A stretch of 64,000 nt of DNA, taken from the NCBI GenBank assembly GCA_965140415.1, contig OZ223209.1, forward strand, positions 2,400,001 through 2,464,000. The letters run 5' to 3'. Below, one piece after another: positions 2,726 to 21,493 of this stretch. The number at the start of each line of letters is the position of its first letter. The stretch's first letter is position 1. This DNA comes from Myxococcota bacterium. Lineage in GTDB: Bacteria; Myxococcota_A; SURF-8. The position numbers and the translations under genes were made by a program. The notes under the pieces were generated by a model. The model searched no databases and was not told the origin of the DNA. It worked only from the letters and a program-made list of their open reading frames with translations.

Positions 2726-5700
2726 ACATCCCGCGTTTTTCAATTACGCATCAGCCGGTGGTCTGGGTCGTTCTATTTCTTGTTCTTGCAGTCGGCGTTC
2801 ATAATTATCTTACGATCAGCCAGCGTGAAGACCCTGAATTCAAGATTTCCGTGGCTTTGATCGTTACGATCTGGCCTGGCGCCAGTGCGGAAAAAGTAGA
2901 GCGACTGGTTACCGAAAAGCTGGAAGATAAATTCGAAGAAATGACGGTGACCAAGGAAATTACCTCGACCACCCGCGAATCCCTTTCCGTGATTATGATC
3001 AAGGTCGACTATGACTGTGACGTCGATATGGCCTGGCAGAAGTTGCGTAATAAAATCGCGGAAGTTTCCGACGAATTACCGGACAACATCATCGGTCCGG
3101 ATGTGATCGACGATTTTGGCGATGTCACGGCCATGATTTACACGCTTTCCAGTGCGACTGCACAGCCGAGTGAACTGAAACAATGGGCGGAATTGCTGAA
3201 GTCCGATCTGAAAAAAGCGCCTTCTTGCGGAAAAATCGAACTGTTGGGTGAACGGCAGGAAGCCATCTACATTGAAGGTCCGTTGGAATCGTTCAGCTTG
3301 TACCAGTTTTCGCCGCTGACTGCCGCAAAAATTCTGGATTATCAGAATGTGAACATGATGGCGGGATACGCTCGAACTCCGGATCGGAAATATCGAATGG
3401 AAGTTTCGGGCAGTTTCAAGCTTACCGAACAATTGGAAAATGCAATTCTGGATGTTTCCCGAAAATCAGGCACGCCATTGAAAGTCAAGGATGTGTTTTC
3501 CGTCCGGCGTGCATACAAGGAACCGCCGCTTGATTTCATGCGTAGCAATGGTCTGCCCGCAATCGGCCTGGATATTCGTATGAAAAAGGGGCGAAATCTG
3601 GTCGAACTCGGTGAGGAAATCAAGGCCATTGGAGAACAGTTTGCACCGCGCCTGCCTCCCAATATCAAGATGGAGCTGGTTCACGATCAACCGCGGCAGG
3701 TGGGCACGTTTGTGGATACCTTCATGAATAACCTTTTCGAAGGTTTGTTCATTGTTATCATCGTGATGTTTCTGGCCATGGGGTTGCGTTCGGCGGCCAT
3801 TATTGCAATCAGCCTGCCGTTGTCTATCGTGATGGCCTTCGCGTTGATGCCTCGCTTTGATGTAGATCTGGAAACGGTGTCGATTGCGGCTTTCATTATT
3901 GCGCTGGGTATGCTGGTGGATAATGCCATCATCATTACCGACAACATCGATGTATACCTGCAACGGGGGATGAATCGCTTAGAGGCGGCCATCAAGGGGG
4001 CTCAGGAATTGGCGATTCCGGCGCTTAGCGGTACCCTGGCAACGGTATTGGCTTTCATTCCGTTGATTTTGATGAGTGATGAGTCCGGCGATTACATCCG
4101 GTCCTTGCCAATCGTGGTGTCTCTTTCATTGTTGGCATCCCTGGTGCTGGCGGTTACGGTTACTCCGATCACCAGTTACCTGTTTTTACGTCGGAACAAA
4201 AAGGTTGAAACGGATACCGCCAAGGCGGAATCCCGTTTCGTGCGCTTTTATCGAAGCATGATGACCTGGAGTCTGCGTCATCGTTTCGTAATGATTGTAC
4301 TTACCGGGGCCGTGCTGACCGGTTCGCTTTTCCTGTTGCAGTCGATCGGCTTTTCTTTCTTCCCGGAGGCGCAGCGCGATCAATTCATGATCGACATCTG
4401 GCTGCCGGAAGGTGCATCCCTGCAACACACGACAGAGGTGGCAGAAGAAGTCGAAGCCATGCTCGAGCAAGATGAGCACATTCGGAACTACGTTTCCTAT
4501 GTGGGAAAGGGCGGTCCGCGTTTTTACATGTCGATCAAACCCGAATTCAATGCGACGAATTTCGCACAGATCATTGTAACGACAACGGATGCCATGAAGA
4601 CACGCTCTATAGTGGATCACTTAAACGAGCGATTCCCACAAGACATTTCCGGGGCGCGGGCAATTGCTTCCAATCTTTGGATGGGGGTTCCGGTTGAGGC
4701 TCCCATTGCCATGCGTGTTACCGGACCCGATTTGGCCATCATGAAGGAAATTTCGGATCAGATTCAGGATGTGCTGCGTTCCATCGACGGTACCGAGCAT
4801 GTACGGGATAATGTGGGAATGCCGGTACCGAACCTTGCTGTTAATGTCGATAATGAATCGGCGCTGATGGCGGGGATTACCAATACCGAAGTGGCGGTAT
4901 CGTTATTGACCGCCTATGAAGGCTTGCCGATCACCAGTTTCCGTGAAGGGGACGAGGAGGTTCCAGTGTACATGCGCCTGATTGAGTCGGAGCGCAATAT
5001 GGGCAATACACTGGATCAGATCAGGGTGCCGTCGCAGACCACGGGAGAAAAGGTGCCGCTGACGACGTTTGCTTCAATCGAAACGGTCTGGGGTCCGGGC
5101 GTGATCAAGCGTACCGATGGCAAACGATCCATTACGGCCTTGGCGAATATTAAAGGAAGATTGGCTTCGGATATCTTGAAGGAAGCATGGCCGCGCATCG
5201 ATGCAATTGACTTGCCGGCTGGTTATGAGATCGAAAGTGTCGGTGAAGAAAAAGAGCGGAATAAGTCGTTTGGTGAAATGATCGTAATCTTTTCATTGAT
5301 TATCGCTCTGATACTACTGATGCTGGTGATACAATTCAACTCGATCAAGAAGGCTCTCGTTATCTTGACGAGTGTGCCCCTGGCGATTATCGGGGCAGTT
5401 TTCGGGTTGTTTATTAGTGGCAACAGTTTCGCTTTCATGCCATTCTTGGGAGTGATCTCGCTTGCGGGTATGGTCATTAAAAATGCGGTTGTATGGATGG
5501 AGTTCGTTAATCAGTCGGTAGCGGAAGGAAACTCGTTGGATCTTGCGATCATCGAGGCTGGGCGTCAGCGTTTACGCCCGATCATTCTTACGGCTGCTAC
5601 GACTATTGGAGGATTAATACCCCTGGCGCTGTTCGGTGGAAGTTTATGGGAAGGTATGGCGTATGCCATGATCTTCGGTCTGGCGCTGGCGACGGTATTG

Positions 5701-7650: not shown

Positions 7651-8982
7651 GTGATGAGTGAAAAAAACGATGAAATGATGGACTGGAAGAGCGCCTCTCG
7701 TGGTGGGTATGCCTATCCCGATTTGCGCCTGGATCAAATCGATGTCGAGGTGACGGAAGCCTTGCGCGCCGAGCGCTTGCGGCAGGAAAACAACATCGAA
7801 CTGATCGCCTCTGAAAATTATGTTTCCCAGGCGGTTATGGATGCCGTAGGGTCATTTGCTACGAATAAATACGCCGAAGGGTATCCTGGGCGGCGCTACT
7901 ACGGCGGCTGTCAACATGTGGATAAACTGGAAACCTTAGCCATCGAGCGGGCCAAGAAACTCTATGGAGCCGAGCACGTCAATGTGCAGACTCATGCCGG
8001 ATCGCAAGCCAATATGGCCATTTACATCGCAGCCATCGAGCCGGGCGATGAAGTGCTGGCCATGTCGTTGGACCATGGCGGTCACTTGACGCATGGTTTC
8101 AAGTTGAATTTCTCTGGCCGATATTTCAAAGTTCACAGCTACGGCGTCCGCAAAGACACGGAGCGCATTGACTACGACCAGGTGTATCGCCTGGCCAAGC
8201 AGAACAAACCGAAAATGATTATCGTGGGGGCTTCGGCATATCCCCGCGAAATCGATTTCGAACGATTCGGCGAAATCGCCACCGAGGTCGGCGCGTTATT
8301 GATGGCGGATATCGCACACATTGCCGGCGGTGTCGCCGCCGGGTTGCATCCATCTCCGATTCCCTATGCCAACTTTGTGACGGCTACAACCCACAAAACC
8401 TTGCGCGGTCCGCGTGGCGGTCTTATTCTGACCAAAGAGGAATGGGCCAGGCGAATCGATTCCGCCGTGTTTCCGGGCATGCAGGGCGGACCATTGATGC
8501 ACGTAATCGCCGCCAAGGCGGTTGCATTCGGAGAAGCCTTAACGCAGGGCTACAACGAATACATGGCTCAGGTACACAACAACGCCAAAGCGCTGGCCGA
8601 CGAACTGACCTTGCTTGGATATCGCTTGGTTACCGGCGGCACGGACAATCACCTGATGCTGGTGGATGTGGGTGCTAAAGGGCTGACAGGCATTGCAGCA
8701 GAGCGTGTGCTGGATCGCATCGGTATTACCGCCAACAAGAATCTGATTCCTTTCGATACGCGCAAACCGGCGGAAGCCTCCGGTATTCGCCTGGGAACTC
8801 CCGCCATGACCACTCGCGGATTGAAGCAGGTGCATATGCAGCAGATCGCACGCTGGATCGATCAGGCCTTGACCAATATGGACGACGAGCAAGTGCTGGC
8901 GCGTGTCCGTCAGGAAACCTTGGAGTTGTGCCGCTATTTTCCCATCGCACCGGGAAATCGCCTGGGTTACACAGGAATTTAA
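7651..8982 (+). CDS. glyA: Serine hydroxymethyltransferase
   Basis: [28 protein letters not shown] and PLP-lysine motif [12 protein letters not shown]. Confidence 0.97.
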
Positions 8983-8995
8983 GCAAGTAAAAAGA

Positions 8996-9036
8996 ATCCC
9001 CCTGAACGACGATCTGGATTTGTCGAACAGGGGGAT
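8996..9036. terminator. Bidirectional intrinsic terminator between convergent glyA and fadD
   Basis: ATCCCCCTG...CAGGGGGAT stem with A-rich left flank and T-rich right flank. Confidence 0.7.
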
Positions 9037-9069
9037 ATTTTTATGTGTGCTGTCTATCCTGATTCTGTA

Positions 9070-10875
9070 TCAAGTGTACATTTGTTCGATCAGATTGGAA
9101 TACTTCTCGTTCACTGCCTTGCGCTTCAATTTCATCGTTGGGGTTAGTTCGCCTGTTTCCTGTGAGAAAGAATGGTTGACCAGCCGGAATTTTTTGATTT
9201 GTTCCACTCGTGCGAATTGCTGATTGATCGCGTTGATCCGATCTTCAAACAACTTTTGCACGTCGGCATGTTCGATCAGTTCCTGCGGCTGATCGTAGCT
9301 GATGTTCTTTTCTTTGGCCCAATTCTGCAAGGCTTCAAAGTCGGGAACGATCAGGGCGGAGATGAAACGTCTGGCATCGCCGATTGCGACGGCGTTTTCG
9401 ATATAGCGATCCACAATCAATGCTTGTTCGATGTTGGCGGGAGAGATGTTCTTCCCTCCGGCAGTGATGATCAACTCCTTTTTACGGTCGGTGATCTTTA
9501 AAAAGCCATCGTTTAATTCTCCGATATCGCCGGTCTTGAACCAGCCATCTTCGGTGAACGCTTCGGCTGTCGCTTCCGGTTTGTTGTAATAGCCTTTCAT
9601 CACCTGCGGGCCTTTAATCAGGATCTCGCCATCTTCGGCGATCTTGATCTCGGTGTCCAAAACCGCTTTTCCGACGGACCCAAAGCGGAAATTCTTGAAG
9701 TCGCTGGCGGTTGCAATCGGTGTGGTTTCCGTCAGGCCGTAGCCCTCGTGAACCGTCAAACCGATGGCGTGGAAGAAACGGTTGATTTCCTCGTTTAATG
9801 GACCTCCACCGCTGACCAGGGTTTTGATTCGATCTGCTCCGAGGTTCTCCTTGATCTTCGTGAAGACCACTTTATCGGCCAGCGCATGTTGGGCTCGCAG
9901 TCCCAGAGGCATTTTTTTATTTTGCGTGATGTATTGGGCGGCTTTCGCCCCGACATCCAACGCCCATGCGAAAATTTTCTGTCTTCTCGGAGGAGCGGTC
10001 TGTAGCTTTTCCTGTATGCCGGAATAGATCTTTTCGAAAAGGCGGGGAACCGACACCACAAAATTGGGTCGGATTTCCTTCATATTATCGATTACCGTCA
10101 GCGGACTTTCCGCAAAATACATGCATCCACCCAAATAGACGACCACATACCAGTCCGCCGTCCTTTCAAGGCAGTGACTTAATGGAAGAAAACTCAGGCT
10201 GCGTTGACCGCGTTCGAACATCTCTTCGTGCGACAAATACGCCTGATAGGCATTTACCAGGAAATTGAAGTGAGTGAGAATCACGCCTTTAGGCGGTCCG
10301 GTTGTGCCGGAGGTATAAATCAGGGTGGCCATATCTTGCTGGTCGATGTTCATCAGTCGTTTGTCCAACTCGGACTGTTCGCCAAATTTCTCTCCCATGC
10401 TGAATACTTCGTCGATGTGCAGCACTTGGTCGTCGTCGTAGGCTCCACGAATGTCATCCATCGTGATGATGTAAGTCAATGAAGGAACACGCTCGCGAAC
10501 GGCCAGTACGCGCTCCAGGTGATCCTTCTCGGCCACGATAACGATTGTACTTTCCGAATCGTTCAGAATGTATTCCGATTCCGTTGCGGAGTTGGTCGGA
10601 TAAATCGGGATATCGGCGCAGCCGGCAGAGAGAATAGCGAGATCACTGACGCACCACTCCCAGCGATTCGGCGAAAAGAGCGCGATGTGGTCTTTGGGTT
10701 TCGCTCCCAGTGAAATCAGTCCAAGGGCCAGGTTTCGGACTTTGCGGTTCGCCTCTCCCCAACTCATGCTTTTCCACTGCTCGTTTTCTTTCCAGCCGAA
10801 AAGCGGTTGCTGGTGCAGTTCTTGAACGTTATTGTAAAACATTTCAGGGATGCTGCGTTCTTTGACCTCGATCAT
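9070..10875 (-). CDS. Long-chain fatty acid-CoA ligase (FadD-like)
   Basis: YTSGTTGPPKG, EGYGLTET, GWFKTGDIG, TPTMKLKR; ATG 10875 with AAGGAG SD; own TTGACA-16-TAATAT promoter at about 10963-10990. Confidence 0.92.
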   Translation of the reverse strand: MIEVKERSIPEMFYNNVQELHQQPLFGWKENEQWKSMSWGEANRKVRNLALGLISLGAKPKDHIALFSPNRWEWCVSDLAILSAGCADIPIYPTNSATESEYILNDSESTIVIVAEKDHLERVLAVRERVPSLTYIITMDDIRGAYDDDQVLHIDEVFSMGEKFGEQSELDKRLMNIDQQDMATLIYTSGTTGPPKGVILTHFNFLVNAYQAYLSHEEMFERGQRSLSFLPLSHCLERTADWYVVVYLGGCMYFAESPLTVIDNMKEIRPNFVVSVPRLFEKIYSGIQEKLQTAPPRRQKIFAWALDVGAKAAQYITQNKKMPLGLRAQHALADKVVFTKIKENLGADRIKTLVSGGGPLNEEINRFFHAIGLTVHEGYGLTETTPIATASDFKNFRFGSVGKAVLDTEIKIAEDGEILIKGPQVMKGYYNKPEATAEAFTEDGWFKTGDIGELNDGFLKITDRKKELIITAGGKNISPANIEQALIVDRYIENAVAIGDARRFISALIVPDFEALQNWAKEKNISYDQPQELIEHADVQKLFEDRINAINQQFARVEQIKKFRLVNHSFSQETGELTPTMKLKRKAVNEKYSNLIEQMYT

Positions 10876-11013
10876 AAATGTCTCCTTCTTGGCACGCACA
10901 AGCAGAGATACGGATCACGGCGCGGTGTTCGATTTCGAGTTAGATTGTTAGTAGCAACGATAATATTATCTGTTTTATGGCAAATGTCAATTTCATAGAT
11001 GGGGGAGGCTGTT

Positions 11014-11052
11014 AAAAAGCAAAAGCCCCTTAGCTTGTTAAACCAGGGGGCT
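11014..11052 (-). terminator. Intrinsic terminator after the FAD oxidoreductase
   Basis: Minus strand reads AGCCCCCT...AGGGGCT followed by TTTGCTTTTT. Confidence 0.6.
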
Positions 11053-11140
11053 AGATGTTACGACCAGCAGCCTTTTTGCAGGATTTTCCTCCGCTTTGGA
11101 GGAAGTTAGTGAAGAAGACTTAAGGGGGGATTAAGAGGGT

Positions 11141-12478
11141 CTACTCATAGTTTTTCGGTGCGAATTTTTCGTAGAGGTTGCCGAACAAATTGTTCGGGTC
11201 CATACGCTTTTTCGCAGCTTGAATGCGGGGTTTACTGTAAATGTCCCAGAAGGTCTGCTCGTCGTAGTGATTGCGAGAAATCAAGGTTTTGACTCCTCCC
11301 AGTTCGTATACTTTCTTTTCCAGAATTTCCGAATAATCGATGCTGGGGTGGTTGTTCAATTTGCCGTATACCGCCGCATCGACGATGAATGTTTCTCCCA
11401 TTCGCTTGGCATGTTCGTCACTGACCCACGGATAGATGGCTTTCATTTTGTAGGGAACGACCCACAACGGGAAAAAGTCGAAGTCACGCTCGTACCAGTC
11501 GTAGAATTCCGGGAAGCGGCGCGATGGCAGAAAGACGTCTACCACCACTTCCGGTCGCTTTTTCATGCGCAGTACCGGTTTGACCCGGTTCGACCAGCTT
11601 ATCAGATTGGTTGAACCTAAAAGCATTTTACCCGCCACCAGACGCATGGCCTTGTTTTCCATCAAAGGCAAGGTGCGCGTGAGCCAATGACATTCCGCGT
11701 CGTAACGGAAAAAGTAATCCTTGATGGTCATGTAGTCTTCGGTCTTTTTCAGGCTGCTCTTGTAATAGATATTCAGCCAACTGTAGTCGGTATGATAGGG
11801 CGCGCTATCCACCATCGTTCCCAGGCACAGGACAAATGCATCCGGTCCATGAATGATGCCGTCCATGAACGGATAGTCGCCCGCCTCGATGCGATCGTTC
11901 ATGTCCTTCCAGAACGCTTCGAATGTGGTGTGTTTGTGATATTCCATGTGAACGTAGGGTTTGGCGGGCATCAGTTTGAACGTCAACTTGGTGATGCGCC
12001 CCAAGGTGCCGTAGGAACCGTGCAGCAGGTTGAATATTTCGGCATCCTGTTCCGGCGAGCAGGTCAGGATTTCTCCCGTTCCGGTTAGCACTTCGTATTC
12101 CAGGCAGCTATCGTGAAAACCGCCATAGCGGTAGGATTGCGACTCGATGGAGCAACCGGAAACGGCTCCGCCAACGGTGATCGTTTTCAGTTCCGGTACA
12201 ACATAAGGCATCAAGTTGTACTTTAGAGTTTCATCCTCCAGATCGCAAAAGGCCAAACCTGGTTCGGCAGTGGCCGTCATCTTTTCCGGATCGATGGCCA
12301 ACAGCCGGTTCAGCTTGGAGAAGTCGATTTTCTGCTTTCCGGAATCATTCGAATAGGGATTGGGAACGAAATGAGAAATGTTTCCCTTTTCGAAACGCAA
12401 TGCGTCTCCATTTCGCCTTTCGGCGTTGCCTTTAAGCGCTTGAACGATCTGACGAACGTTTCGGTCGTGTTCAATCAT
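11141..12478 (-). CDS. FAD-linked oxidoreductase, VAO/PCMH fold, delta(24)-sterol reductase (DHCR24)/TmsA-like
   Basis: VVPELKTITVGGAVSGCSIESQSYRYGGFHDS, GSYGTLG, C-terminal DPNNLFGNLYEK; ATG 12478 with AAGGA SD. Confidence 0.8.
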   Translation of the reverse strand: MIEHDRNVRQIVQALKGNAERRNGDALRFEKGNISHFVPNPYSNDSGKQKIDFSKLNRLLAIDPEKMTATAEPGLAFCDLEDETLKYNLMPYVVPELKTITVGGAVSGCSIESQSYRYGGFHDSCLEYEVLTGTGEILTCSPEQDAEIFNLLHGSYGTLGRITKLTFKLMPAKPYVHMEYHKHTTFEAFWKDMNDRIEAGDYPFMDGIIHGPDAFVLCLGTMVDSAPYHTDYSWLNIYYKSSLKKTEDYMTIKDYFFRYDAECHWLTRTLPLMENKAMRLVAGKMLLGSTNLISWSNRVKPVLRMKKRPEVVVDVFLPSRRFPEFYDWYERDFDFFPLWVVPYKMKAIYPWVSDEHAKRMGETFIVDAAVYGKLNNHPSIDYSEILEKKVYELGGVKTLISRNHYDEQTFWDIYSKPRIQAAKKRMDPNNLFGNLYEKFAPKNYE

Positions 12479-12491
12479 GGTGTACTGTCCT

Positions 12492-13379
12492 TCACTGAAG
12501 GGTGTTGAGATAGTTTTCGATATCATTCGCCATCGCGGCGCTATGCATGTACTTATTCGATTCGCAGGGGATGAGTGTGCTCCGACCAATCAACTCCGCC
12601 ATGCGATTGATGCTGTCGGTGCCGTGCAGTTTGTCGGTAGAGGCATAGGCAATGCCAACCGGACAGGAAACCTGTTCCAGTTCCGACCAGATCCGGTAGT
12701 TCATAAACGCCATGCAACTCAGCTTGATGCGTTGCGGGTGGGCTTCCAGCAATGTACGCCGATAGCGCCCAATCTGCTCCGGCTCGTTTTTGGAATCCAC
12801 CCTGAAATGTTGCAGATACCAGATGATGAAATACTTGATAATGTGGTAGCTGGCAGCGGGCATATGTGGAATCCAGCGCAGAAAGGCTGGAACATGAAAT
12901 TCGCTGTTGGGACCGATACAGAAAGCTGCCTTCAATGGCAGGTGGTTCTCCTTCAGTGCGTGCAGGATGCTTGTTGCGCCTAAAGATGAACCGCAAAGGA
13001 CGGTTCGTTCCAGATCGATCGGCAGCGCATTGCAAACCCGAGTCAGATCCTCTGCAAAGCGTTCGATGCTGAATTCCTTGGCATGCTTCTGAGGCTGGTC
13101 GTGTTGTGCGCTTTGCTTTTCGCGGGTTTCGATGTAGTACAGCGGATGCGTTTTCCCGATTTCACGAAGCAAATCCGCCCAGCCGGATTCGACGGACACC
13201 CAGCCTGGAACGAATAGAATCGGATCGACATCGTCCGTGGCTGCTTTTGGAATCCAGTTCATTACCCGCAGGTTAACGCCATTTGTGGTTGGAACGTAGA
13301 ATTCCCGGTAGTCGGCTTCTTTCAAATCGATGGGGTCGTGATGTTGATCTTGCATGTTCAGCTCCATAGCTAACGTCAC
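12492..13379 (-). CDS. Alpha/beta-fold hydrolase
   Basis: PILFVPGW oxyanion region, GSSLG nucleophile elbow, Asp in STDKLH, late His in KYMH. Confidence 0.75.
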   Translation of the reverse strand: MTLAMELNMQDQHHDPIDLKEADYREFYVPTTNGVNLRVMNWIPKAATDDVDPILFVPGWVSVESGWADLLREIGKTHPLYYIETREKQSAQHDQPQKHAKEFSIERFAEDLTRVCNALPIDLERTVLCGSSLGATSILHALKENHLPLKAAFCIGPNSEFHVPAFLRWIPHMPAASYHIIKYFIIWYLQHFRVDSKNEPEQIGRYRRTLLEAHPQRIKLSCMAFMNYRIWSELEQVSCPVGIAYASTDKLHGTDSINRMAELIGRSTLIPCESNKYMHSAAMANDIENYLNTLQ

Positions 13380-13437
13380 AAATCATTTTCTGCTGGTATC
13401 GCGTTTAGCGTTTAACGACTTTCTACTTCCTTATTCC

Positions 13438-16400
13438 TCAGCCAATGGTCTTGCTTGATGCGGCGCGACGTTGTTCCCGTTGTTGATTCTGCTCGAAGCT
13501 ATTGGCGATATTGACGATGTAGGTATCCACGATATCATTGATGTCGCCTTCTCCGTCGTAGAACATATTCGCTACGGGAACGCCGTACTCCTTCTGAATC
13601 TGCTGGAAAACACCGCTGGTAATCGATCCTGGCATACAGCCGAAGGGGGCGCAGTTGACTACGAGCGAAGCGCCATCTTTCATGTACTCGATGGCACGGC
13701 CTAGCGTGATGATGGTTTCACCTTCGAAGTCCATCGGAACAAAACGCGCTCCGGCGTTTAAGGTGCTGACAATCGACGGCTCGTGGCGTTTATCCAGCAG
13801 GGGAGAGGCCAGATCCATCCACATCTTTTCGTCCTTGGTCAAGAAGCGGTTTTTCAACAGCTTGCCCATGCGGTCCATCAAGCCGCCGGTACGATGACCT
13901 TTCGTCCAGCTTTCCATGTAGGCGGTATAGATGATCCATTCGGAGATCGGTGCCAGCCAGGCTTCGCCACCCGCTTTTTCGATACGCCGCACCACATCCT
14001 GGTTGGTGAAGCGGTTATTGCGGACGTAAATTTCGCCGATAATACCTACCAGCGGCTTTTTCTTATCGATGATCGGAATCGCTTTAAATGCATTGGCGAT
14101 TTCTTTCATCAAAGGTTTGCAGTCTGCTCGCGATTCGATGGCGGCTTCCATCCGTTCGATGCTTTTCCAATAAAGCTCTTCGGTTTCTCCTGCGTTCACT
14201 TCATAAGGCGTTACGCGACAGCGAAGTTTGAACAGCACGTCTCCGAGTACGATACCGGTCCACAGCCAGCGCCGGGTTTCATCGTCGGTGCCGTCGTAAC
14301 TGTCCGTGCTGGTCCAGCTTACGATGGGAACGTGATTCCAGCCCATTCGGTTCATCGAGATGCGATCCAGGGTGCAATATTGACCGAAACGGCACGGACC
14401 TTCGGCGGTCGGCATGAACAGAGCGTGTTCGTTGGTATTGCCGCCATGCTTTTCTATGGTAGAGAAGAAGGTGCCAAGCGTAGCGGGGCAGGGGACACAC
14501 TCTCCTCCACGAGTTGCAGCGCGTCCGAGTTGGAAGGCATAGTCGTCTTCCGGCGGCAAGGGACGGGCATTGACTCCTGCGCCTCGCAATGCGGCGGCCA
14601 TGAAAATCGGTTGACCTTCACCCATCGGCGGCACCCACAGGGTGCGTGTTTTCAATGCAGCGGAATCAATCGGAGGTTTCGTGAACGTAAATCGCTTTGC
14701 AGTGTGAATTTCGTTTACTTTAAGCACGTCCGTAAAGGCTTCCAGCCGGGTTAAATAGCCCGCGTCTGCGCCGTGTTCGTCCAGTTCAAGCATCAGCATG
14801 GGTTTTTCGCCCATGACTTCTTCCGCATAGGTTTGAAGGAATGAGTCCGGTCCGCAACTGAAGTTACTGAAATATACGGCGTACAGGTTCGGTTGACGCG
14901 CGACGTAGCGTACCGCTTCCATGATTTTCCGTCCGTAATTCCAGTACATGTTCTGAAATTCCTCGCCGAGATCCTCTTCCGCGATGGGTAGGTATTCCAG
15001 CGGAACAACCGGCAAACCCAGCCGCGCGATTTTCTCCGGCAGAGCCAGGTTCGCTCCCGGATCGAAAACGTTGTACGGGCGTCCCAGGATGACAATGGCG
15101 GGCGTATCGCTCTGGGCGACTTCCTGTAACGCCTTTTGTCCTGCAATTCGCACGGATTCCTCGAAATGTTGCTGTGTTTTCCAGGCTTCGCGCCAGGCTT
15201 TTGAAATGCTGCGCTTGTTCGCTTTCAAGCATTTACCCAGATCTTCGTGCAGCCGCTCGATGGTCGTTTTCTCATTCCAGCGGAGATCCAGGGTGGCCGA
15301 AATCAAACGTTCGCCATCGACGCCGTTTAAGTGCATGGCCGAACGCAGCATGGCCGGCAACGAGATGTTATACGGGCAGAAATAGGATTCCGTCGTTTTT
15401 CCGCTTTTATCGCCAGCCGACACCATGTAAGGCGCGAAAACACGCTCGACGCTGTTTTCCAGCAACAGGCGGGTGTGACCGTGCGCCAGTTTGACCGGAT
15501 GGCAATAGTCTGCACCCACCCAGTCGGAGGAGAGCCGGGTGGTTTCATCGTCGGTGGGACCGGATAGCGTCAGGCGATAGCCCAGTTCTGCGAAGAAGCG
15601 CCGCCAAAGCGGGTAGTAAGAGTGCGCCAGCAATGCGCGCGGATAGCCGATGACCGGTGCGTCTTTCGGCAGTTTCTTTTCCGCGCCGCTGGACTTCCAA
15701 AGCCGTTCCCGTTCTTTGAAAAAGCGGAACTCGCGGTTTCGCTTGACGCCGTCGTCTTCCGGGTCGCGTCCGCATAAATATCCCCAACTTGGGCGCTGGT
15801 CCAGGCCATCCACTTCGGCAAAGGTGATATGGCAGTGATTCGCACAGAGTTCGCAGTCCTCGGTGGAGAGGCGTACTTCCTTGTCGGCGAAATCCACTCC
15901 CACAAAGCGGGTTGTCTCCTTTGCGGCTTCCATCTGACGCTTGGTCAGCAGTGCGACGCCCCAACTGCCCATAACGTGACAGTAAGGCGATACCACGACT
16001 TCGACTCCCAGCAGATTTTCGAATGCCGCGACCAATCCTTTGTTGCGTGCCGTCGCGCCCTGGAAAAAGACTTTGGTTTTGTTGTAATAGCGATTGCCCA
16101 CCACCTTGTTCAGGTAGTTTTGCACAACGGAATAGAGCACCGCGCCCATGACTTCACGTGGAGTGAAACCCTTGCGCAACAGGCTGCGGGCGTCCTGGTC
16201 CATAAACACGGTGCAGCGGTCACTGGTGATGGGGGGGACGACGCCCAGCACTTCGTCACCCAGTGTGAACAGATCGAAACCCATTTTCCGCGACAGTTCT
16301 TCCACGAACGAGCCGGTTCCTGCTGCACAGACGTAGTTCATGTTCGCGTTATGCAGATTTCCATTGACGGTGTGCACGTATTTGGCGTCCTGACCGCCGA

Positions 16401-17673
16401 TTTCGAAAATGGTGTCGATGCTCGGATCGACTTTCATCGCGCCGGTGACGTGAGCCGTGATTTCGTTATGAACGCGATCCGCCTGAATCACGGCGCCGAC
16501 AAGTTTCCGTCCCGAACCGGTTGTGCCGACGCCAAGAATTTCAACCTGCCCACCGCGTCTGGCGGCCAACTGGCGCAGGGCGCGGAACAGCGCTTTGGTT
16601 GCGCCGATCGGATCGCCTCCGGTTTTGCGATAGATGTCCAGCAGAACCTCTTCCTGCTCGTCGATCAGCATCAGTTTGGTGGATGTGGACCCGATGTCGA
16701 TTCCCAGATATCCGGTCAGACGACCATCTTCCGGCCAGCGGCTGACACGGATTTCGTTCTTTTCCTCATCGATGACGAATTCTTCGACATCGAAAGACGG
16801 ATACTGGCTGCGTACCAATTCCAATGGTTTGCGTACGCTCTCGCGGGTCTGTTCGTCCTCTTCATCCAAGAGCCGATTCCACGACACCGATCCCGATACC
16901 GGTTCCGCAAGCAGAGCCGCGCCGGTGGAGCCTGCTTCCTGGGGAGCTTCCAGTTTTTCCAGACCGCCAGGTAACTCCTTTGCAAGCCAGCGCATGACGT
17001 CGCGATTACGGGCGACACCGCCCACGGCCACCGTTTTGCCCTGCGGGCGACGACCTTTGAATAGCGTCATCAAGATGGTGCGTGTCAGGCCTTTACATAG
17101 TCCGGCCCACATCTCCGGCTTGCCGAAACCTTCCTGCTGACGGTGAATCAAATCGCTTTTGGCAAAAACCGCGCAGCGGGCGGCAACAGAGGGGGGAGCC
17201 TCGATTACGGGCATCGCAGCAATATCATCGTATTCGATCCCCAAACGGGCGGCCTGCTCGTCCAGAAAAGAACCGGTGCCTGCTGCACAGACGGTATTGG
17301 TCTGATAGCCGGTGAATTCACCTTGTGCGTTCAGTTCCACCAAGGACAAAGAACCGCCACCAATATCGATGATCTGACGGACATTGGGGTGTTCACGGCG
17401 CACACCTTCAACAATCGCGGCAACTTCGTTACCGGCAGACAAACCCAATTTCTCTGCAATCGGTTTCGAATGCAGCCCGACAAGGCCCACGGCTTGAATC
17501 GTTTCCGGCAAGGAGAGCTCGGAAAGCAACTGGTGTAGAACCTTGTAAACGTCGCCTTTATGCGGACGGCTTGCTCGTTGAACGATTTTTCCATTCTTGT
17601 CGAGCAACGTCACTTTGACAAACAGTGCACCGACATCCAAACCGACTTGGGTTATTGTCTGTTGATCGCTCAT
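13438..17673 (-). CDS. Fused CoA-substrate-specific enzyme activase with DUF2229/dehydratase-like domains (PlsA/PlsR/Ger-type architecture)
   Basis: Two ASKHA ATPase domains (GLDVG/GIDIGSTSTK, two CAAGTGSF, RCAVF/RCTVF); CELCANHC linker; YCHPVKLAHGH, FCPY, FSCGPD, GPCRFGQY, PFGCMPG; ATG 17673 with AGGAAGG SD. Confidence 0.85.
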   Translation of the reverse strand: MSDQQTITQVGLDVGALFVKVTLLDKNGKIVQRASRPHKGDVYKVLHQLLSELSLPETIQAVGLVGLHSKPIAEKLGLSAGNEVAAIVEGVRREHPNVRQIIDIGGGSLSLVELNAQGEFTGYQTNTVCAAGTGSFLDEQAARLGIEYDDIAAMPVIEAPPSVAARCAVFAKSDLIHRQQEGFGKPEMWAGLCKGLTRTILMTLFKGRRPQGKTVAVGGVARNRDVMRWLAKELPGGLEKLEAPQEAGSTGAALLAEPVSGSVSWNRLLDEEDEQTRESVRKPLELVRSQYPSFDVEEFVIDEEKNEIRVSRWPEDGRLTGYLGIDIGSTSTKLMLIDEQEEVLLDIYRKTGGDPIGATKALFRALRQLAARRGGQVEILGVGTTGSGRKLVGAVIQADRVHNEITAHVTGAMKVDPSIDTIFEIGGQDAKYVHTVNGNLHNANMNYVCAAGTGSFVEELSRKMGFDLFTLGDEVLGVVPPITSDRCTVFMDQDARSLLRKGFTPREVMGAVLYSVVQNYLNKVVGNRYYNKTKVFFQGATARNKGLVAAFENLLGVEVVVSPYCHVMGSWGVALLTKRQMEAAKETTRFVGVDFADKEVRLSTEDCELCANHCHITFAEVDGLDQRPSWGYLCGRDPEDDGVKRNREFRFFKERERLWKSSGAEKKLPKDAPVIGYPRALLAHSYYPLWRRFFAELGYRLTLSGPTDDETTRLSSDWVGADYCHPVKLAHGHTRLLLENSVERVFAPYMVSAGDKSGKTTESYFCPYNISLPAMLRSAMHLNGVDGERLISATLDLRWNEKTTIERLHEDLGKCLKANKRSISKAWREAWKTQQHFEESVRIAGQKALQEVAQSDTPAIVILGRPYNVFDPGANLALPEKIARLGLPVVPLEYLPIAEEDLGEEFQNMYWNYGRKIMEAVRYVARQPNLYAVYFSNFSCGPDSFLQTYAEEVMGEKPMLMLELDEHGADAGYLTRLEAFTDVLKVNEIHTAKRFTFTKPPIDSAALKTRTLWVPPMGEGQPIFMAAALRGAGVNARPLPPEDDYAFQLGRAATRGGECVPCPATLGTFFSTIEKHGGNTNEHALFMPTAEGPCRFGQYCTLDRISMNRMGWNHVPIVSWTSTDSYDGTDDETRRWLWTGIVLGDVLFKLRCRVTPYEVNAGETEELYWKSIERMEAAIESRADCKPLMKEIANAFKAIPIIDKKKPLVGIIGEIYVRNNRFTNQDVVRRIEKAGGEAWLAPISEWIIYTAYMESWTKGHRTGGLMDRMGKLLKNRFLTKDEKMWMDLASPLLDKRHEPSIVSTLNAGARFVPMDFEGETIITLGRAIEYMKDGASLVVNCAPFGCMPGSITSGVFQQIQKEYGVPVANMFYDGEGDINDIVDTYIVNIANSFEQNQQREQRRAASSKTIG

Positions 17674-17739
17674 TATTGCCTTCCTTTCGATTGCCTGCTG
17701 CCGGTTCTGTTTCACAGTGGAAGATTCCGGCAGGGAACT

Positions 17740-17774
17740 TAACTAATCAGTTAGTTAGTCTAACTGGTTAGTTA
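17740..17774. promoter_or_regulatory. Tandem palindromic operators TAACTAA-N4-TTAGTTA upstream of the activase operon
   Basis: TAACTAAtcagTTAGTTA (17740-17757, perfect arms) and agtCTAActggTTAGTTA (17757-17774). Confidence 0.7.
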
Positions 17775-17858
17775 ATCGTAGTGATTGTTTTTTTACGCTC
17801 TAGCATTTCTATAAAGTTGTCATCGTAACTTAATGTGTAAAACGGAACTTTCGAACAA

Positions 17859-18485
17859 TTAGGAGGAAGACGTTGGTTCGTTAAGCAGTATTCGCATGAT
17901 CATGTGCATCAGTAAATCGCGTCGCATTTCAACTTGAGAATCGCTTGTTGCATCTCGGTCCATCAGAATTTCCAGAAACGGACTGTCTGAGAAATACGTT
18001 ACGGTCATGCCGTAGATCGCCGTCAACAACTGATCGGGATCGATCGGCTTGAAAATACCGGTTTGACTTCCAGCCAGGATAAAACGCTTGGCCTCTTTGT
18101 ACAAAGGCTTGAAGTGTTGCCGGATCAAATCGGCGAAATAGTCCTGATTATCATGGCCAGTCTCCATCGCCGTAATGCGTGCGAAATTGCGGTGACGGGA
18201 GGCGTAGTCGAAGAAACCTTTAAAGAATAGTTCCAGTTTGGTTACGGGATCGATGGGCTCTGGAGCTATTTTTCCAACCAATTCAACAAGATCCTCTACC
18301 ATACGTTTTAAAACCGCTCGGTGCAGTTCTTCTTTGGAATTGAAATAGTAGTGGATCATGGCGCTGGTGATTCCGGCGCGGGCGCTGATGTCCTTGATGC
18401 GTGCACCACCGAAGCCATTCTCTGCGAATGTCGCTTCTGCGCTATCGATGATGCGTTCTCGTGTGTCTTTCTGCTGCTCAGCCAT
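17859..18485 (-). CDS. TetR/AcrR family transcriptional regulator
   Basis: HTH RERIIDSAEATFAENGFGGARIKDISARAGITSAMIHYYFNSKEEL; ATG 18485 preferred as start. Confidence 0.92.
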   Translation of the reverse strand: MAEQQKDTRERIIDSAEATFAENGFGGARIKDISARAGITSAMIHYYFNSKEELHRAVLKRMVEDLVELVGKIAPEPIDPVTKLELFFKGFFDYASRHRNFARITAMETGHDNQDYFADLIRQHFKPLYKEAKRFILAGSQTGIFKPIDPDQLLTAIYGMTVTYFSDSPFLEILMDRDATSDSQVEMRRDLLMHMIMRILLNEPTSSS

Positions 18486-18520
18486 TGTTTGTCGTGTCGC
18501 TCCATGAAGTTCAATGGCAC

Positions 18521-18538
18521 TAACTAAACAGTTAGTTG
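18521..18538. promoter_or_regulatory. Third copy of the operator, in front of tetR (autoregulation)
   Basis: TAACTAAacagTTAGTTg, just downstream of a minus-strand TTGACA-17-TATTCA (18577-18549). Confidence 0.7.
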
Positions 18539-18705
18539 AATTGAGTGTTGAATACACGGTCGACCTGCTTTTGTCAAGGGAGAAAACTCACTTGTTAAAT
18601 TAAGTTCGTTTCATTATTCAAGTTTCAATGTGAATCGCGGAGGTTAGGGTTTGAATAAATATGCGGAAAGGTGCAAAAAATCAAAAAATAATAGCGAATC
18701 AAATG

Positions 18706-18734
18706 TTGACAACCATGGGTTGTTTATATAGATT
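18706..18734 (+). promoter_or_regulatory. Sigma70 promoter of the his operon
   Basis: TTGACA (18706-18711), 17 bp, TAGATT (18729-18734), with an A-rich UP-like tract upstream. Confidence 0.75.
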
Positions 18735-18740
18735 AAACGC

Positions 18741-18803
18741 ATGATTAGACAGGGCAATAAAAATAAAGGACATCATCATCATCGCTTTAAACGAGCCGGG
18801 TGA
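18741..18803 (+). CDS. hisL: His operon leader peptide MIRQGNKNKGHHHHRFKRAG
   Basis: 20-codon ORF with four consecutive CAT codons, directly upstream of attenuator hairpins and hisG. Confidence 0.88.
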   Translation: MIRQGNKNKGHHHHRFKRAG

Positions 18804-18859
18804 TGGTTCAGTCTGTGATTTCGTAACCATCAGCGCCGGCTCGCAGTCGGCGCTGTTTT
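18792..18859 (+). terminator. His attenuator: mutually exclusive antiterminator and terminator
   Basis: Terminator CAGCGCCGGC-tcgca-GTCGGCGCTG-TTTT (18831-18859). Antiterminator CGAGCCGG (18792-99) with CCGGCTCG (18836-43) and TGATGGTT (18801-08) with AACCATCA (18825-32). Confidence 0.85.
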
Positions 18860-18879
18860 GCGTTTATGAAAGGTAAATC

Positions 18880-19755
18880 ATGGTCCAGATGGAATTGGAA
18901 AAACCGTTGCGCTTGGCGTTACCGAAAGGACGGATGAAGGCGGGGATCATTCGTCTTCTGGAGGAAGCCGGAATTCAATTGACGGTCGACGAGCGAAATT
19001 ATCGGCCCACGTTGTCTGTTCCCGGATTCGAAACCAAGCTGCTAAAACCCCAGAATATCGTGGAAATGCTCCATGTCGGTTCGCGGGACATCGGTTTTAC
19101 CGGCTTGGACTGGGTCCGGGAATTGAACGCCGATGTGGTTGAAGTGCTGGATACGGAATTGAATCCGGTTCGGATCGTGGCTGCCGCTCCCGTGTCGATT
19201 CTGGAAAACGGACAACTTCCTCAACGGAAATTGGTGGTGGCATCGGAATATGAACGCTTGACGCGGGAGTGGATTAAGGAAAAGAAGATCAACGCCTCTT
19301 TTGTCCGCTCTTATGGCGCAACCGAAGTCTTTCCGCCGGAAGACGCCGATATGATTGTGGATAATTCGTCGACCGGGAGCACGCTGTCTGCCAATCGGTT
19401 GCAGATTGTGGATGAATTGTTGAAGTCGTCCACACGCCTGTTCGTCAATCCGAAAACATTGGAAAATCCGGAGCGCAGGCAAGTCGTGGAACGCTTCGTC
19501 CTGTTGTTGAAGTCGGTGCTACAGGCCAGAAAACGGGTCATGCTGGAAGTAAACGTTACGGCAGAACGGCTGGAGGCCGTCGTCGCGTTATTGCCCTGCA
19601 TGCGCCGACCGACGATTGCTTCGCTGTACGGTGATGAAGGATATGCAGTCAAAGCAGCGGTGCCCAGGGCGATCTTACCCACTCTGATTCCCGAATTGAA
19701 AGAAGCGGGAGGAACGGATGTGGTGGTGACGGCTCCCGATCAACTCGTGCCATAA
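18880..19755 (+). CDS. hisG: ATP phosphoribosyltransferase, long form
   Basis: LALPKGR, DIGFTGLDW, SYGATE, DMIVDNSSTGSTL, plus C-terminal regulatory domain. Confidence 0.95.
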   Translation: MVQMELEKPLRLALPKGRMKAGIIRLLEEAGIQLTVDERNYRPTLSVPGFETKLLKPQNIVEMLHVGSRDIGFTGLDWVRELNADVVEVLDTELNPVRIVAAAPVSILENGQLPQRKLVVASEYERLTREWIKEKKINASFVRSYGATEVFPPEDADMIVDNSSTGSTLSANRLQIVDELLKSSTRLFVNPKTLENPERRQVVERFVLLLKSVLQARKRVMLEVNVTAERLEAVVALLPCMRRPTIASLYGDEGYAVKAAVPRAILPTLIPELKEAGGTDVVVTAPDQLVP

Positions 19756-19774
19756 GCTCATGTGGAGTGATGAA

Positions 19775-21493
19775 ATGACAACAAAGCCTGTACCCACGAG
19801 TTTCGTTTCTTCGATGCCGAGTTACGGCGTTCCCTATGCGCCTGCGCCAACGGATCTGAGGCTGGATTCCAATGAAGGCATCGGACCGGAATTGTCTTTG
19901 CTTGCAGCCTTGGATGAATTCGGACCGAACCTGGTTCGCTATTATATGAAAACAACCGACCTGGAAGGGCGAATCGCCCAGAAACTCGGTTTCGATGCAG
20001 GTCAGGTGATCGTAACAGCGGGAGCGGATGATGCCATTACTCGCCTGTTCAGGGCGTATCTCTCACCCGGACGGGAAGTGATTCTCGTTACTCCGACGTT
20101 TGAAATGTTCACCATTTTCACTAAGCTCGTCGGTGCGACGATGGTCTGTGTGCCTTGGGGAGAGGGCGACTATCCTGTGGATGCAATTTTACAGGCCGTT
20201 ACTCCAAAAACGGCAATGATCGTCGTCGTATCTCCCAATAACCCCACGGGAGCGGTCGTATCCGAAGCCGCCTTGAAACGCTTATCCGATGCTGTGCCAC
20301 AGGCCGTTATTGCACTGGATCTGGCGTACACCGCTTTTACGGAACAGGATCTGTTTCCCATTGGGCGGACGCTGGAAAACGTGGTTTGCCTGCACACCTT
20401 TTCCAAAAGCTGGGGATTGGCCGGGCTGCGTGTCGGATATGCTACCGCCAGTGCCGAAATGATTCGTTATTTGCGTTTGGCAGGGACGCCCTATCCGGTT
20501 TCCAGTGTGTCGCTGGCATTGGCCACAAAATGGCTGGAACAGGGGGAAGAACCGACTGCCGCTTACGTGACCCGAATCAAATACGAGCGGGAAGAATTGA
20601 CCGCCTTATTGAAGCGACTGGGGGCGTCGCCTTTACCGTCTGAAGCCAACTTCGTATTTACGCGCGTCGCCGATCCCGTCTGGCTGCGGGATGCCTTGGC
20701 CGGCATGGGCATTTCGGTGCGCCTGTTTGTGGATGCTGGCGAATTCCAAGGTGGTGTGCGCATCACCTGTCCCGGTAAGGAAATCGAGTTTGAGCGATTG
20801 TGTGATGCACTGAGAACCATCCTGAAACCGCAGGCGTTATTGTTCGATATGGATGGCGTTTTGGCGGATGTGTCCCGCTCTTATCGCCGCGCGATTCAAC
20901 AGACTGCCAAAGCCTTCGGCATTGAACTGGACGAACAACAGATTGCCGCCGCCAAAGCCGAACCGGGATCGAACAACGACTGGGTAACCACGCAGCGCCT
21001 GTTGCAGCAGCATGGTATTCAGGTGGAGTTAGATGAAGTAACACGACGTTTCGAAGAGCTCTATCAGGGAACGGCAGAGCGCGCCGGACTGCGGGAGCAG
21101 GAAAGCTTGTTGGTCCAGCGCGATTGGTTGCAACGCATGGCGGCACGACTGCCGCTGGGAATCGTCACCGGTCGTCCACGCGGCGATGCCGAACGTTTCC
21201 TTTCAAAAATGGAAGTTAACGATCTGTTCACCTGTGTAATCTGCCTGGAAGATGGTCCACGCAAGCCGGACCCGGCTCCGGTTCATCTCGCTTTGCAGAA
21301 ATTGGGCATAGAGCAGGCTTGGATGATCGGAGATGCGCCGGATGACATCGCCGCCGCTCGGGCAGCAAAGGTGCTGCCGCTTGGAATCGTTGCTCCCGGC
21401 GACGATAGGGAGAGTACGGCGCGGCTGTTGACACAAACCGGTGCCGCGCGAGTATTCGAAAAGGCAAGCGATATTGAGGAGGTTCTGCCATGA
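19775..21493 (+). CDS. hisC: Histidinol-phosphate aminotransferase fused to a C-terminal HAD hydrolase (probable histidinol-phosphatase)
   Basis: LDSNE, SPNNPTG, TFSKSWGLAGLRVG; then HAD motifs FDMDGV, TGRP, KPDP, GD..DD. Confidence 0.88.
   Translation: MTTKPVPTSFVSSMPSYGVPYAPAPTDLRLDSNEGIGPELSLLAALDEFGPNLVRYYMKTTDLEGRIAQKLGFDAGQVIVTAGADDAITRLFRAYLSPGREVILVTPTFEMFTIFTKLVGATMVCVPWGEGDYPVDAILQAVTPKTAMIVVVSPNNPTGAVVSEAALKRLSDAVPQAVIALDLAYTAFTEQDLFPIGRTLENVVCLHTFSKSWGLAGLRVGYATASAEMIRYLRLAGTPYPVSSVSLALATKWLEQGEEPTAAYVTRIKYEREELTALLKRLGASPLPSEANFVFTRVADPVWLRDALAGMGISVRLFVDAGEFQGGVRITCPGKEIEFERLCDALRTILKPQALLFDMDGVLADVSRSYRRAIQQTAKAFGIELDEQQIAAAKAEPGSNNDWVTTQRLLQQHGIQVELDEVTRRFEELYQGTAERAGLREQESLLVQRDWLQRMAARLPLGIVTGRPRGDAERFLSKMEVNDLFTCVICLEDGPRKPDPAPVHLALQKLGIEQAWMIGDAPDDIAAARAAKVLPLGIVAPGDDRESTARLLTQTGAARVFEKASDIEEVLP

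Follow-up and report, generated by a model that had tools for sequence, protein, structure and literature searches.

We analyzed a locus in the 5.98-Mb genome (G000) of a Myxococcota bacterium that encodes a large enzyme assigned to the PlsA/Ger family by its domain layout. Unless another genome or locus is named, coordinates refer to a 64-kb window, which is the whole stretch of DNA analyzed (contig OZ223209.1, positions 2,400,001 to 2,464,000). Four genes, all on the minus strand, follow one another in the order TetR-family regulator, PlsA/Ger-family enzyme, alpha/beta-hydrolase and FAD_binding_4 flavoprotein. The regulator gene (17859-18485, ATG at 18485) encodes 208 amino acids (aa) with matches to TetR_N and TetR_C_29 in Pfam. 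A spacer of 185 nucleotides (nt) separates it from the enzyme gene (13438-17673), whose ATG at 17673 is preceded by AAGGAAGG and whose product has 1411 aa and 156.8 kDa. The esterase-like hydrolase (12492-13379, stop at 12492) has 287-295 aa depending on the start chosen, and the flavoprotein (11141-12478), of the VAO/PCMH type, has 445 aa. The initial annotation of this DNA had described the enzyme, hydrolase and flavoprotein genes as co-oriented and closely spaced, and the gene calls bear out their position and common strand. The flavoprotein gene begins 13 nt past the hydrolase stop, as annotated, and has AAGGA upstream of its start. The annotated gap of 58 nt between the enzyme and hydrolase genes assumes the GTG at 13379; the hydrolase more likely begins with the ATG at 13355, giving a gap of 82 nt, because this codon has GGAG six bases upstream and agrees with the starts of the orthologues.

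Two stretches of the enzyme match the BcrAD_BadFG activase family (PF01869, E 6.5e-52), the protein also matches TIGR00241 (E 2.3e-65), and its sequence matches in the PDB are HgdC-type activators. DUF2229 (PF09989, E 1.6e-56) follows the activases at residues 689-907, and the last 520 residues show a weak HGD-D match (PF06050; 19.2 bits with a cut-off of 28.4, E 0.00098). The layout of Ger has been published as 'BBD plus small H/D hits' (PMC13159169, available portion). Because it combines two PF01869 stretches, PF09989 and a weak HGD-D-like match at the C-terminus, the window enzyme matches the published PlsA/Ger layout, as the initial annotation had proposed. We aligned 35 family members, namely the window protein with 25 others of its clade, plus 9 sequences from two other clades. 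Thirteen cysteines are invariant in all 35 (C129, C167, C449, C487, C607, C614, C634, C724, C766, C940, C1059, C1094 and C1346), and the pairs C129/C167 and C449/C487 sit in the two activase domains. Since all of these family-invariant cysteines are kept, the enzyme looks catalytically intact. Whether the product is an alkenyl or an alkyl ether cannot be read from the enzyme sequence, and Ger and PlsA are not assignable from primary sequence according to the authors of PMC13274423, in the part of that paper available. The genome carries a second family paralogue of 1414 aa, 29% identical to the window enzyme (G000:C1:436548-440243; L003:8477-12721, minus strand). It adjoins a Lar_N gene, has genes for a FakA/DegV fusion, FabG and LolA nearby and may be a housekeeping lipid enzyme. 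The orthologous enzyme frame is broken into two pieces in one relative (L033 of G001) and into three in another (L031 of G009), where assembly error or decay are possible causes.

The palindrome AACTAA-N4-TTAGTT occurs on both sides of the regulator gene. One perfect copy, AACTAAACAGTTAGTT, lies in front of this gene in its promoter region (18522-18537), and a tandem pair in the spacer 5' of the enzyme gene (17741-17773) consists of a perfect copy at 17741-17756 and, one base away, an imperfect copy at 17758-17773. When up to one mismatch was allowed, the 5.98-Mb genome contained three sites, all of them perfect, with 0.36 expected, and two of the three are at this locus. The third (G000:C1:2259247; L074, about 5248-5263) is flanked on one side by a TTGACA/TTATGT promoter-like pair and on the other by the gene of a stand-alone TetR_C_29 regulator, a paralogue that shares 24% identity with the window TetR; this site does not extend the regulon. 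We compared 31 loci of the enzyme clade (the window, 8 from close relatives, 7 named loci from metagenome-assembled genomes (MAGs) and 15 further loci of the phylum, some of them cut by contig ends). In 10 of the 31, a TetR orthologue precedes the enzyme gene in the same orientation, and the same palindrome is present in the spacer between TetR and enzyme genes of four relatives (G006, G002, G001 and G009). Because the palindrome is rare genome-wide and kept in these relatives, repression of the enzyme gene by TetR through the palindromes is a well-supported inference, in line with the dedicated TetR of the initial annotation. TetR and the big enzyme together make up the conserved unit. As a separate observation, the window TetR and its stand-alone paralogue may share the palindromes or compete for them.

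The initial annotation had bounded the operon by tandem operators and a terminator. The operators are in place; at the other end, a terminator-like hairpin with a U-run (11014-11052, minus strand) was read from the sequence and its fold, with 12 pairs and one bulge at 11024-11052 followed by UUUGCUUUUU, but a simple terminator scanner was silent and the 68-nt fold reached a z-score of only -0.74.

A FastTree phylogeny of the 35-member alignment placed the window enzyme in a monophyletic clade of 26 sequences (support 0.99), apart from the two other clades of the same phylum. Among 401 phylum genomes, 85 contain a family member (E 1e-100) and 29 a window-clade orthologue (at least 44% identity). 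The clade is thus distinct and fairly rare, and we regard the enzyme as a putative member of an uncharacterized clade of the PlsA/Ger family, placed there by domain layout, under TetR control and with lineage-specific accessory genes. Two proteins from MAGs labelled Desulfobacterales (L058) and Desulfobacula (L061) nest within this Myxococcota-labelled clade, next to the window protein, which suggests interphylum transfer.

Glycerolipid genes stand beside the enzyme gene on the same strand in 5 of the 31 loci. In L062 the enzyme gene is followed, at a distance of 35 nt, by the start of a gene for a PlsB-type glycerol-3-phosphate acyltransferase, and in L061 an MMPL transporter gene begins 21 nt downstream of the enzyme gene. 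An MMPL transporter gene is found upstream in L058, a GDPD gene upstream in L164 and a CDP-alcohol phosphatidyltransferase gene downstream in L167. Since glycerolipid genes adjoin the enzyme in these five loci, there is modest but consistent support for a membrane glycerolipid as the likely substrate of the clade.

The two downstream genes are linked to the enzyme less by position than by co-occurrence. The flavoprotein gene lies directly 3' of the enzyme gene in the window and in two relatives (G006 and G009), and likewise in a third (G003), where the pair is split over two contigs, so that the arrangement is seen in four genomes of three genera. The hydrolase gene adjoins the enzyme gene only in the window (1/31). 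We counted co-occurrence over the 401 phylum genomes, taking hydrolases at 40-50% identity and flavoproteins at 44% identity or more. Of the 10 genomes that encode the hydrolase, 9 also have the clade enzyme, with 0.7 expected by chance, and the sole exception is a genome that is 79% complete. The flavoprotein is present in 29 genomes, 14 of them with the clade enzyme (2.1 expected), and 7 of the genomes without it hold another clade of the enzyme. At the level of families, the enzyme clade is found in 10 of 70; all 5 families with the hydrolase and 8 of the 17 with the flavoprotein are among those 10 (hypergeometric p of 2e-5 and 9e-5, respectively). All three genes are present yet dispersed in G001, G002 and G008; only in the window do they come together in a single operon. 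Because the three genes co-occur in the phylum well above chance, some link among them is plausible. A triad recurring as a conserved operon is contradicted by the single hydrolase neighbour, by the four genomes with a flavoprotein neighbour and by the metagenome loci described below.

The hydrolase has a weak Hydrolase_4 match, a G-S-S-L-G nucleophile elbow and the residues Ser128, Asp245 and His275, which are invariant in 10/10 orthologues. Its structural model, with a predicted local distance difference test score (pLDDT) of 88.5, has an alpha/beta fold, and the nearest folds are esterases (Foldseek E 5e-14, template modelling (TM) score 0.73), PhaZ and the phospholipase PlaF. The predicted fold is therefore best described as a generic esterase fold. 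At nine hydrolase loci we found no conserved neighbours, except for a Metallophos gene in one genus.

We favor the reading that the locus specifies a TetR-repressed lipid ester reductase of the PlsA/Ger family with a core of two genes, and that an accessory esterase and flavoprotein act on the same lipid pool; our estimate for this reading as a whole is a probability of about 0.55. The regulator would bind AACTAA-N4-TTAGTT at its own promoter and, in tandem, before the enzyme gene. By analogy with the family, the two HgdC-like ATPase domains would spend ATP and drive low-potential electrons to the Fe-S DUF2229/HGD-D-like part, where, in the absence of oxygen, the acyl ester at sn-1, and perhaps also at sn-2, of a completed membrane phospholipid would be reduced to an ether. 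The repressor probably confines the oxygen-sensitive enzyme to suitable conditions, and such control makes sense because the genome also encodes a haem-copper oxidase (COX1). The serine esterase and the DprE1/CKX-like flavoprotein, which stand alone elsewhere, would have been recruited behind the enzyme in this genome and most likely carry out accessory remodelling on the same pool, one option being that the esterase deacylates and that the flavoprotein performs a flavin-dependent redox step on the lipid. Neither is an obligatory partner of the reductase.

Parts of this arrangement have counterparts in characterized systems. The PlsA protein of Enterococcus faecalis (EF1327) is likewise a single polypeptide with two activase and reductase/dehydratase domains, and a TetR/AcrR gene (EF1326) lies directly upstream of plsA (PMC9702350 and PMC12838417, as far as their available text goes). 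E. faecalis is also able to respire or tolerate oxygen, as COX1 suggests for the organism studied here. Unlike the window, E. faecalis has no esterase or flavoprotein described downstream in the accessible parts of these reports, and the two systems are likened by layout and not by sequence comparison. With the Ger proteins of Thermotoga maritima (Tmari_0479) and Desulfatibacillum alkenivorans (SHJ90043) the window enzyme shares the BBD order, weak HGD-D-like matches and two activases, and both Ger and the window enzyme are found in deltaproteobacteria-like lineages. Ger expressed alone in Escherichia coli yields saturated mono- and diethers (PMC13159169 and PMC11150832), so it needs no partner there, and the portions of these papers available report no TetR or accessory genes for Ger. 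The enzyme family, its architecture and the upstream TetR (in E. faecalis) are already known. We did not find in print the distinct clade, its conserved operator, or the co-occurring esterase and VAO-type flavoprotein in one operon; the literature yielded no PlsA/Ger gene combined with such an esterase and flavoprotein, in line with the initial annotation, whose author knew of none.

Several results weigh against the favored reading. Characterized PlsA and Ger proteins were not among the sequences in the tree, the window enzyme is 25-30% identical to the other clades of its phylum, and the phylum-wide search gave no match outside the window clade with an identity above 35%. Among 241 genomes sampled from the order around a Desulfobacula-labelled MAG (Desulfobacterales), family members occur in 197 and a window-clade orthologue in 2 among the matches listed; the other matches listed are 30-36% identical to the window enzyme, and 115 weaker ones are not among them. 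In this respect the clade differs from Ger, as it is rare where Ger-type proteins abound. The lipid-gene neighbours at 5 of 31 loci amount to a modest enrichment. As regards the accessory genes, 8 of the 29 flavoprotein genomes lack any family member at E 1e-100. Five clade-enzyme genomes outside the phylum sample contained neither hydrolase nor flavoprotein, while G000 served as a positive control. The families of one order are related and possibly share a habitat, so that the co-occurrence p values overstate independence, and a common habitat could also give rise to the co-occurrence. The palindrome was absent at up to two mismatches near unlinked flavoprotein and hydrolase copies in relatives. 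In metagenomes, none of 80 loci with flavoprotein orthologues (47-71% identity) contained the enzyme, the TetR or the hydrolase, and 43 of these loci have at least 1.5 kb upstream of the flavoprotein gene.

The divergence of the enzyme leads to an alternative in which it acts on another carbonyl substrate or is inactive, the hydrolase and flavoprotein being either part of that other pathway or passengers. A precedent comes from D. alkenivorans, whose Ger2 (SHK01260) is closely paralogous to a proven Ger but gave no ether lipid when expressed in E. coli (PMC11150832, available part). Like the second paralogue of D. alkenivorans, the window enzyme shares its genome with another family member, here the 1414-aa protein near FakA/DegV, FabG and LolA, which could be the housekeeping lipid enzyme. 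The deep divergence of the clade from the others and the statement by the authors cited above that Ger and PlsA are not assignable from sequence also speak for this alternative. It is countered by the same-strand glycerolipid neighbours, by the complete retention of the family cysteines and by the fact that the functions of PlsA and Ger are the only ones shown for this architecture in the literature on these domain names, which consisted of ether-lipid papers and a single unrelated hit. We consider a different substrate or loss of activity unlikely.

The flavoprotein contains FAD_binding_4 (PF01565, E 1.3e-18), and its model, which shows the two-domain VAO fold, has a pLDDT of 89.6. We determined structural Z-scores of the model with reference chains, and Foldseek, run alongside, was in agreement. 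The best matches were DprE1 (Z 28.4), L-galactonolactone dehydrogenase (Z 27.8), cytokinin dehydrogenase (CKX; Z 26.3) and alditol oxidase (Z 25.8), with 358-371 residues aligned, 14-18% identity and Foldseek E values of 1e-20 to 1e-18. The flavoprotein shares with these four dehydrogenases and oxidases, which include L-galactono-1,4-lactone dehydrogenase, the whole-length fold and FAD_binding_4, but no shared substrate-domain residues are detectable and there is no sugar or cytokinin context. The match to alkyl-dihydroxyacetone phosphate (DHAP) synthase (AGPS) was weaker (Z 15.1-16.5) and by sequence covers the N-terminal domain only (E 7e-10), with no FAD-oxidase_C match; at 445 aa the flavoprotein is also shorter than AGPS with its about 580-660 aa. 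MurB, a member of the same FAD_binding_4 superfamily, gave Z 8.9-10.6 over 218-243 aligned residues. The nearest flavoprotein clusters in the ESM Atlas carry the automatic name 'Delta(24)-sterol reductase' (score 0.98), which we take as a lead only. A protein search returned generic names only, the family is widespread, and a relative of 56% identity is labelled Polyangium sp. Clustering of the neighbours at 100 flavoprotein loci revealed no recurrent partner, as none was shared by more than 6/100. A lipase-type gene lies within ~3 kb of a flavoprotein gene unlinked to the enzyme at two of 20 phylum loci (L037:11334-12437 and L049:4119-6950); one of the two is of the Lipase_2 type and the other PAF-acetylhydrolase/PETase-like, and a FadD-like match is located 7 kb off in L049.

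We considered the flavoprotein as a MurB-type enol-ether reductase and rejected this candidate, as a search for MurB_C in the flavoprotein gave no match at E 0.001 and the Z-scores of 8.9-10.6 for MurB compare with 25.8-28.4 for the dehydrogenases and oxidases. The initial annotation had assigned it such a reductive role within a pathway in which the enzyme makes a vinyl ether, the flavoprotein reduces it to an alkyl ether, and the hydrolase together with the neighbouring acyl-CoA ligase recycles acyl chains. The position of the flavoprotein gene 3' of the enzyme gene in four genomes of three genera and their co-occurrence above chance favor this pathway. So does the chemistry of the superfamily, which includes reductases of C=C bonds; MurB reduces an enol ether and DHCR24 an alkene, and MurB chemistry is the nearest precedent for the reduction of a vinyl ether. 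The automatic sterol-reductase name in the ESM Atlas is a further lead in this direction. An enzyme that converts vinyl ethers to alkyl ethers is also lacking in the field (PMC13274423, according to its available portion). A separate saturation step would be unneeded, however, because Ger alone already yields saturated ethers in E. coli. Moreover, the nearest folds are those of dehydrogenases and oxidases, with MurB at 10.6 at best and no MurB_C, and the flavoprotein mostly occurs without the enzyme, as seen in the metagenome loci, in the 8 of 29 genomes and in the Polyangium sp.-labelled member.

The FadD11-like long-chain acyl-CoA ligase (9070-10875, minus strand) is indeed next to the triad, as the initial annotation stated, but does not belong to the conserved unit. 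Its gene is preceded by a promoter-like site of its own (TTGACA-16-TAATAT, 10990-10963), no copy of the operator was found at the gene, and a ligase gene stands beside the enzyme gene in none of the 30 other loci of the clade. We treat it as a separate transcription unit because of this promoter-like site and the missing operator, and acyl-chain remodelling by the ligase together with saturation of a vinyl ether by the flavoprotein is, in our judgement, quite unlikely.

The nearest folds would fit an oxidative role, desaturation or ether cleavage, at least as well as the reduction of a vinyl ether. In one such scenario the flavoprotein oxidizes ether lipids, either from alkyl to vinyl without oxygen or at the alpha-carbon with cleavage of the ether in a CKX-like manner, and the esterase removes the remaining acyl chain, so that the accessory genes would serve conversion or turnover and not synthesis. 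DprE1, the closest fold, acts on a lipid-linked substrate, CKX is among the best matches as well, and lipase-type genes are found ~3 kb from the flavoprotein gene at the two phylum loci mentioned above. The layout with two activase domains has in addition been tied to the alkyl-ether-forming Ger (PMC13274423, available portion). This last argument is weakened by E. faecalis PlsA, which produces plasmalogens although it, too, is drawn with two activase domains (PMC12838417, in the part available), and the neighbours of the flavoprotein do not recur, at most 6 of 100 loci sharing any one of them. A search of the genome for CarF/PEDS1 (PF10520) gave no match, but the controls were also silent and the result is uninformative. 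We attach a low probability to oxidation of ether lipids by the flavoprotein, and an equally low one to the broader idea that it converts vinyl-ether membrane lipids into alkyl-ether ones or the reverse, independently of oxygen and with the esterase as partner, in a pathway that is dispersed in relatives and assembled here. If true, such interconversion would explain how anaerobes set the ratio of plasmalogens to alkyl ethers and would fill a step drawn as a question mark in schemes of bacterial branched tetraether (brGDGT) synthesis.

Widely used palaeoclimate proxies are based on bacterial ether lipids, as is the debate on the 'lipid divide'. Under the favored reading of a TetR-repressed lipid ester reductase, the locus offers a distinct clade with a defined repressor and operator, usable to find the inducing signal, and two candidate accessory enzymes that co-occur with the clade well above chance. 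If the accessory genes are unrelated, the locus simply adds to the PlsA/Ger homologues that have a TetR, of which Enterococcus already provides an example.

Upstream of the TetR gene, on the plus strand, the window contains a probable his-operon attenuator (18706-18879). A promoter-like site (18706-18734) is followed by a leader open reading frame of 20 codons (18741-18803; MIRQGNKNKGHHHHRFKRAG) with four consecutive His codons, and a strong terminator-like hairpin (18831-18855) with a T-run lies 25 nt ahead of hisG; a search of Rfam at E 0.1 found nothing here or elsewhere in window positions 8900-19100. Directly after hisG, 19760-21493 (plus strand) encodes 577 aa in which a class I/II aminotransferase is joined to a HAD phosphatase domain; the product may be a fused HisC/histidinol-phosphatase.

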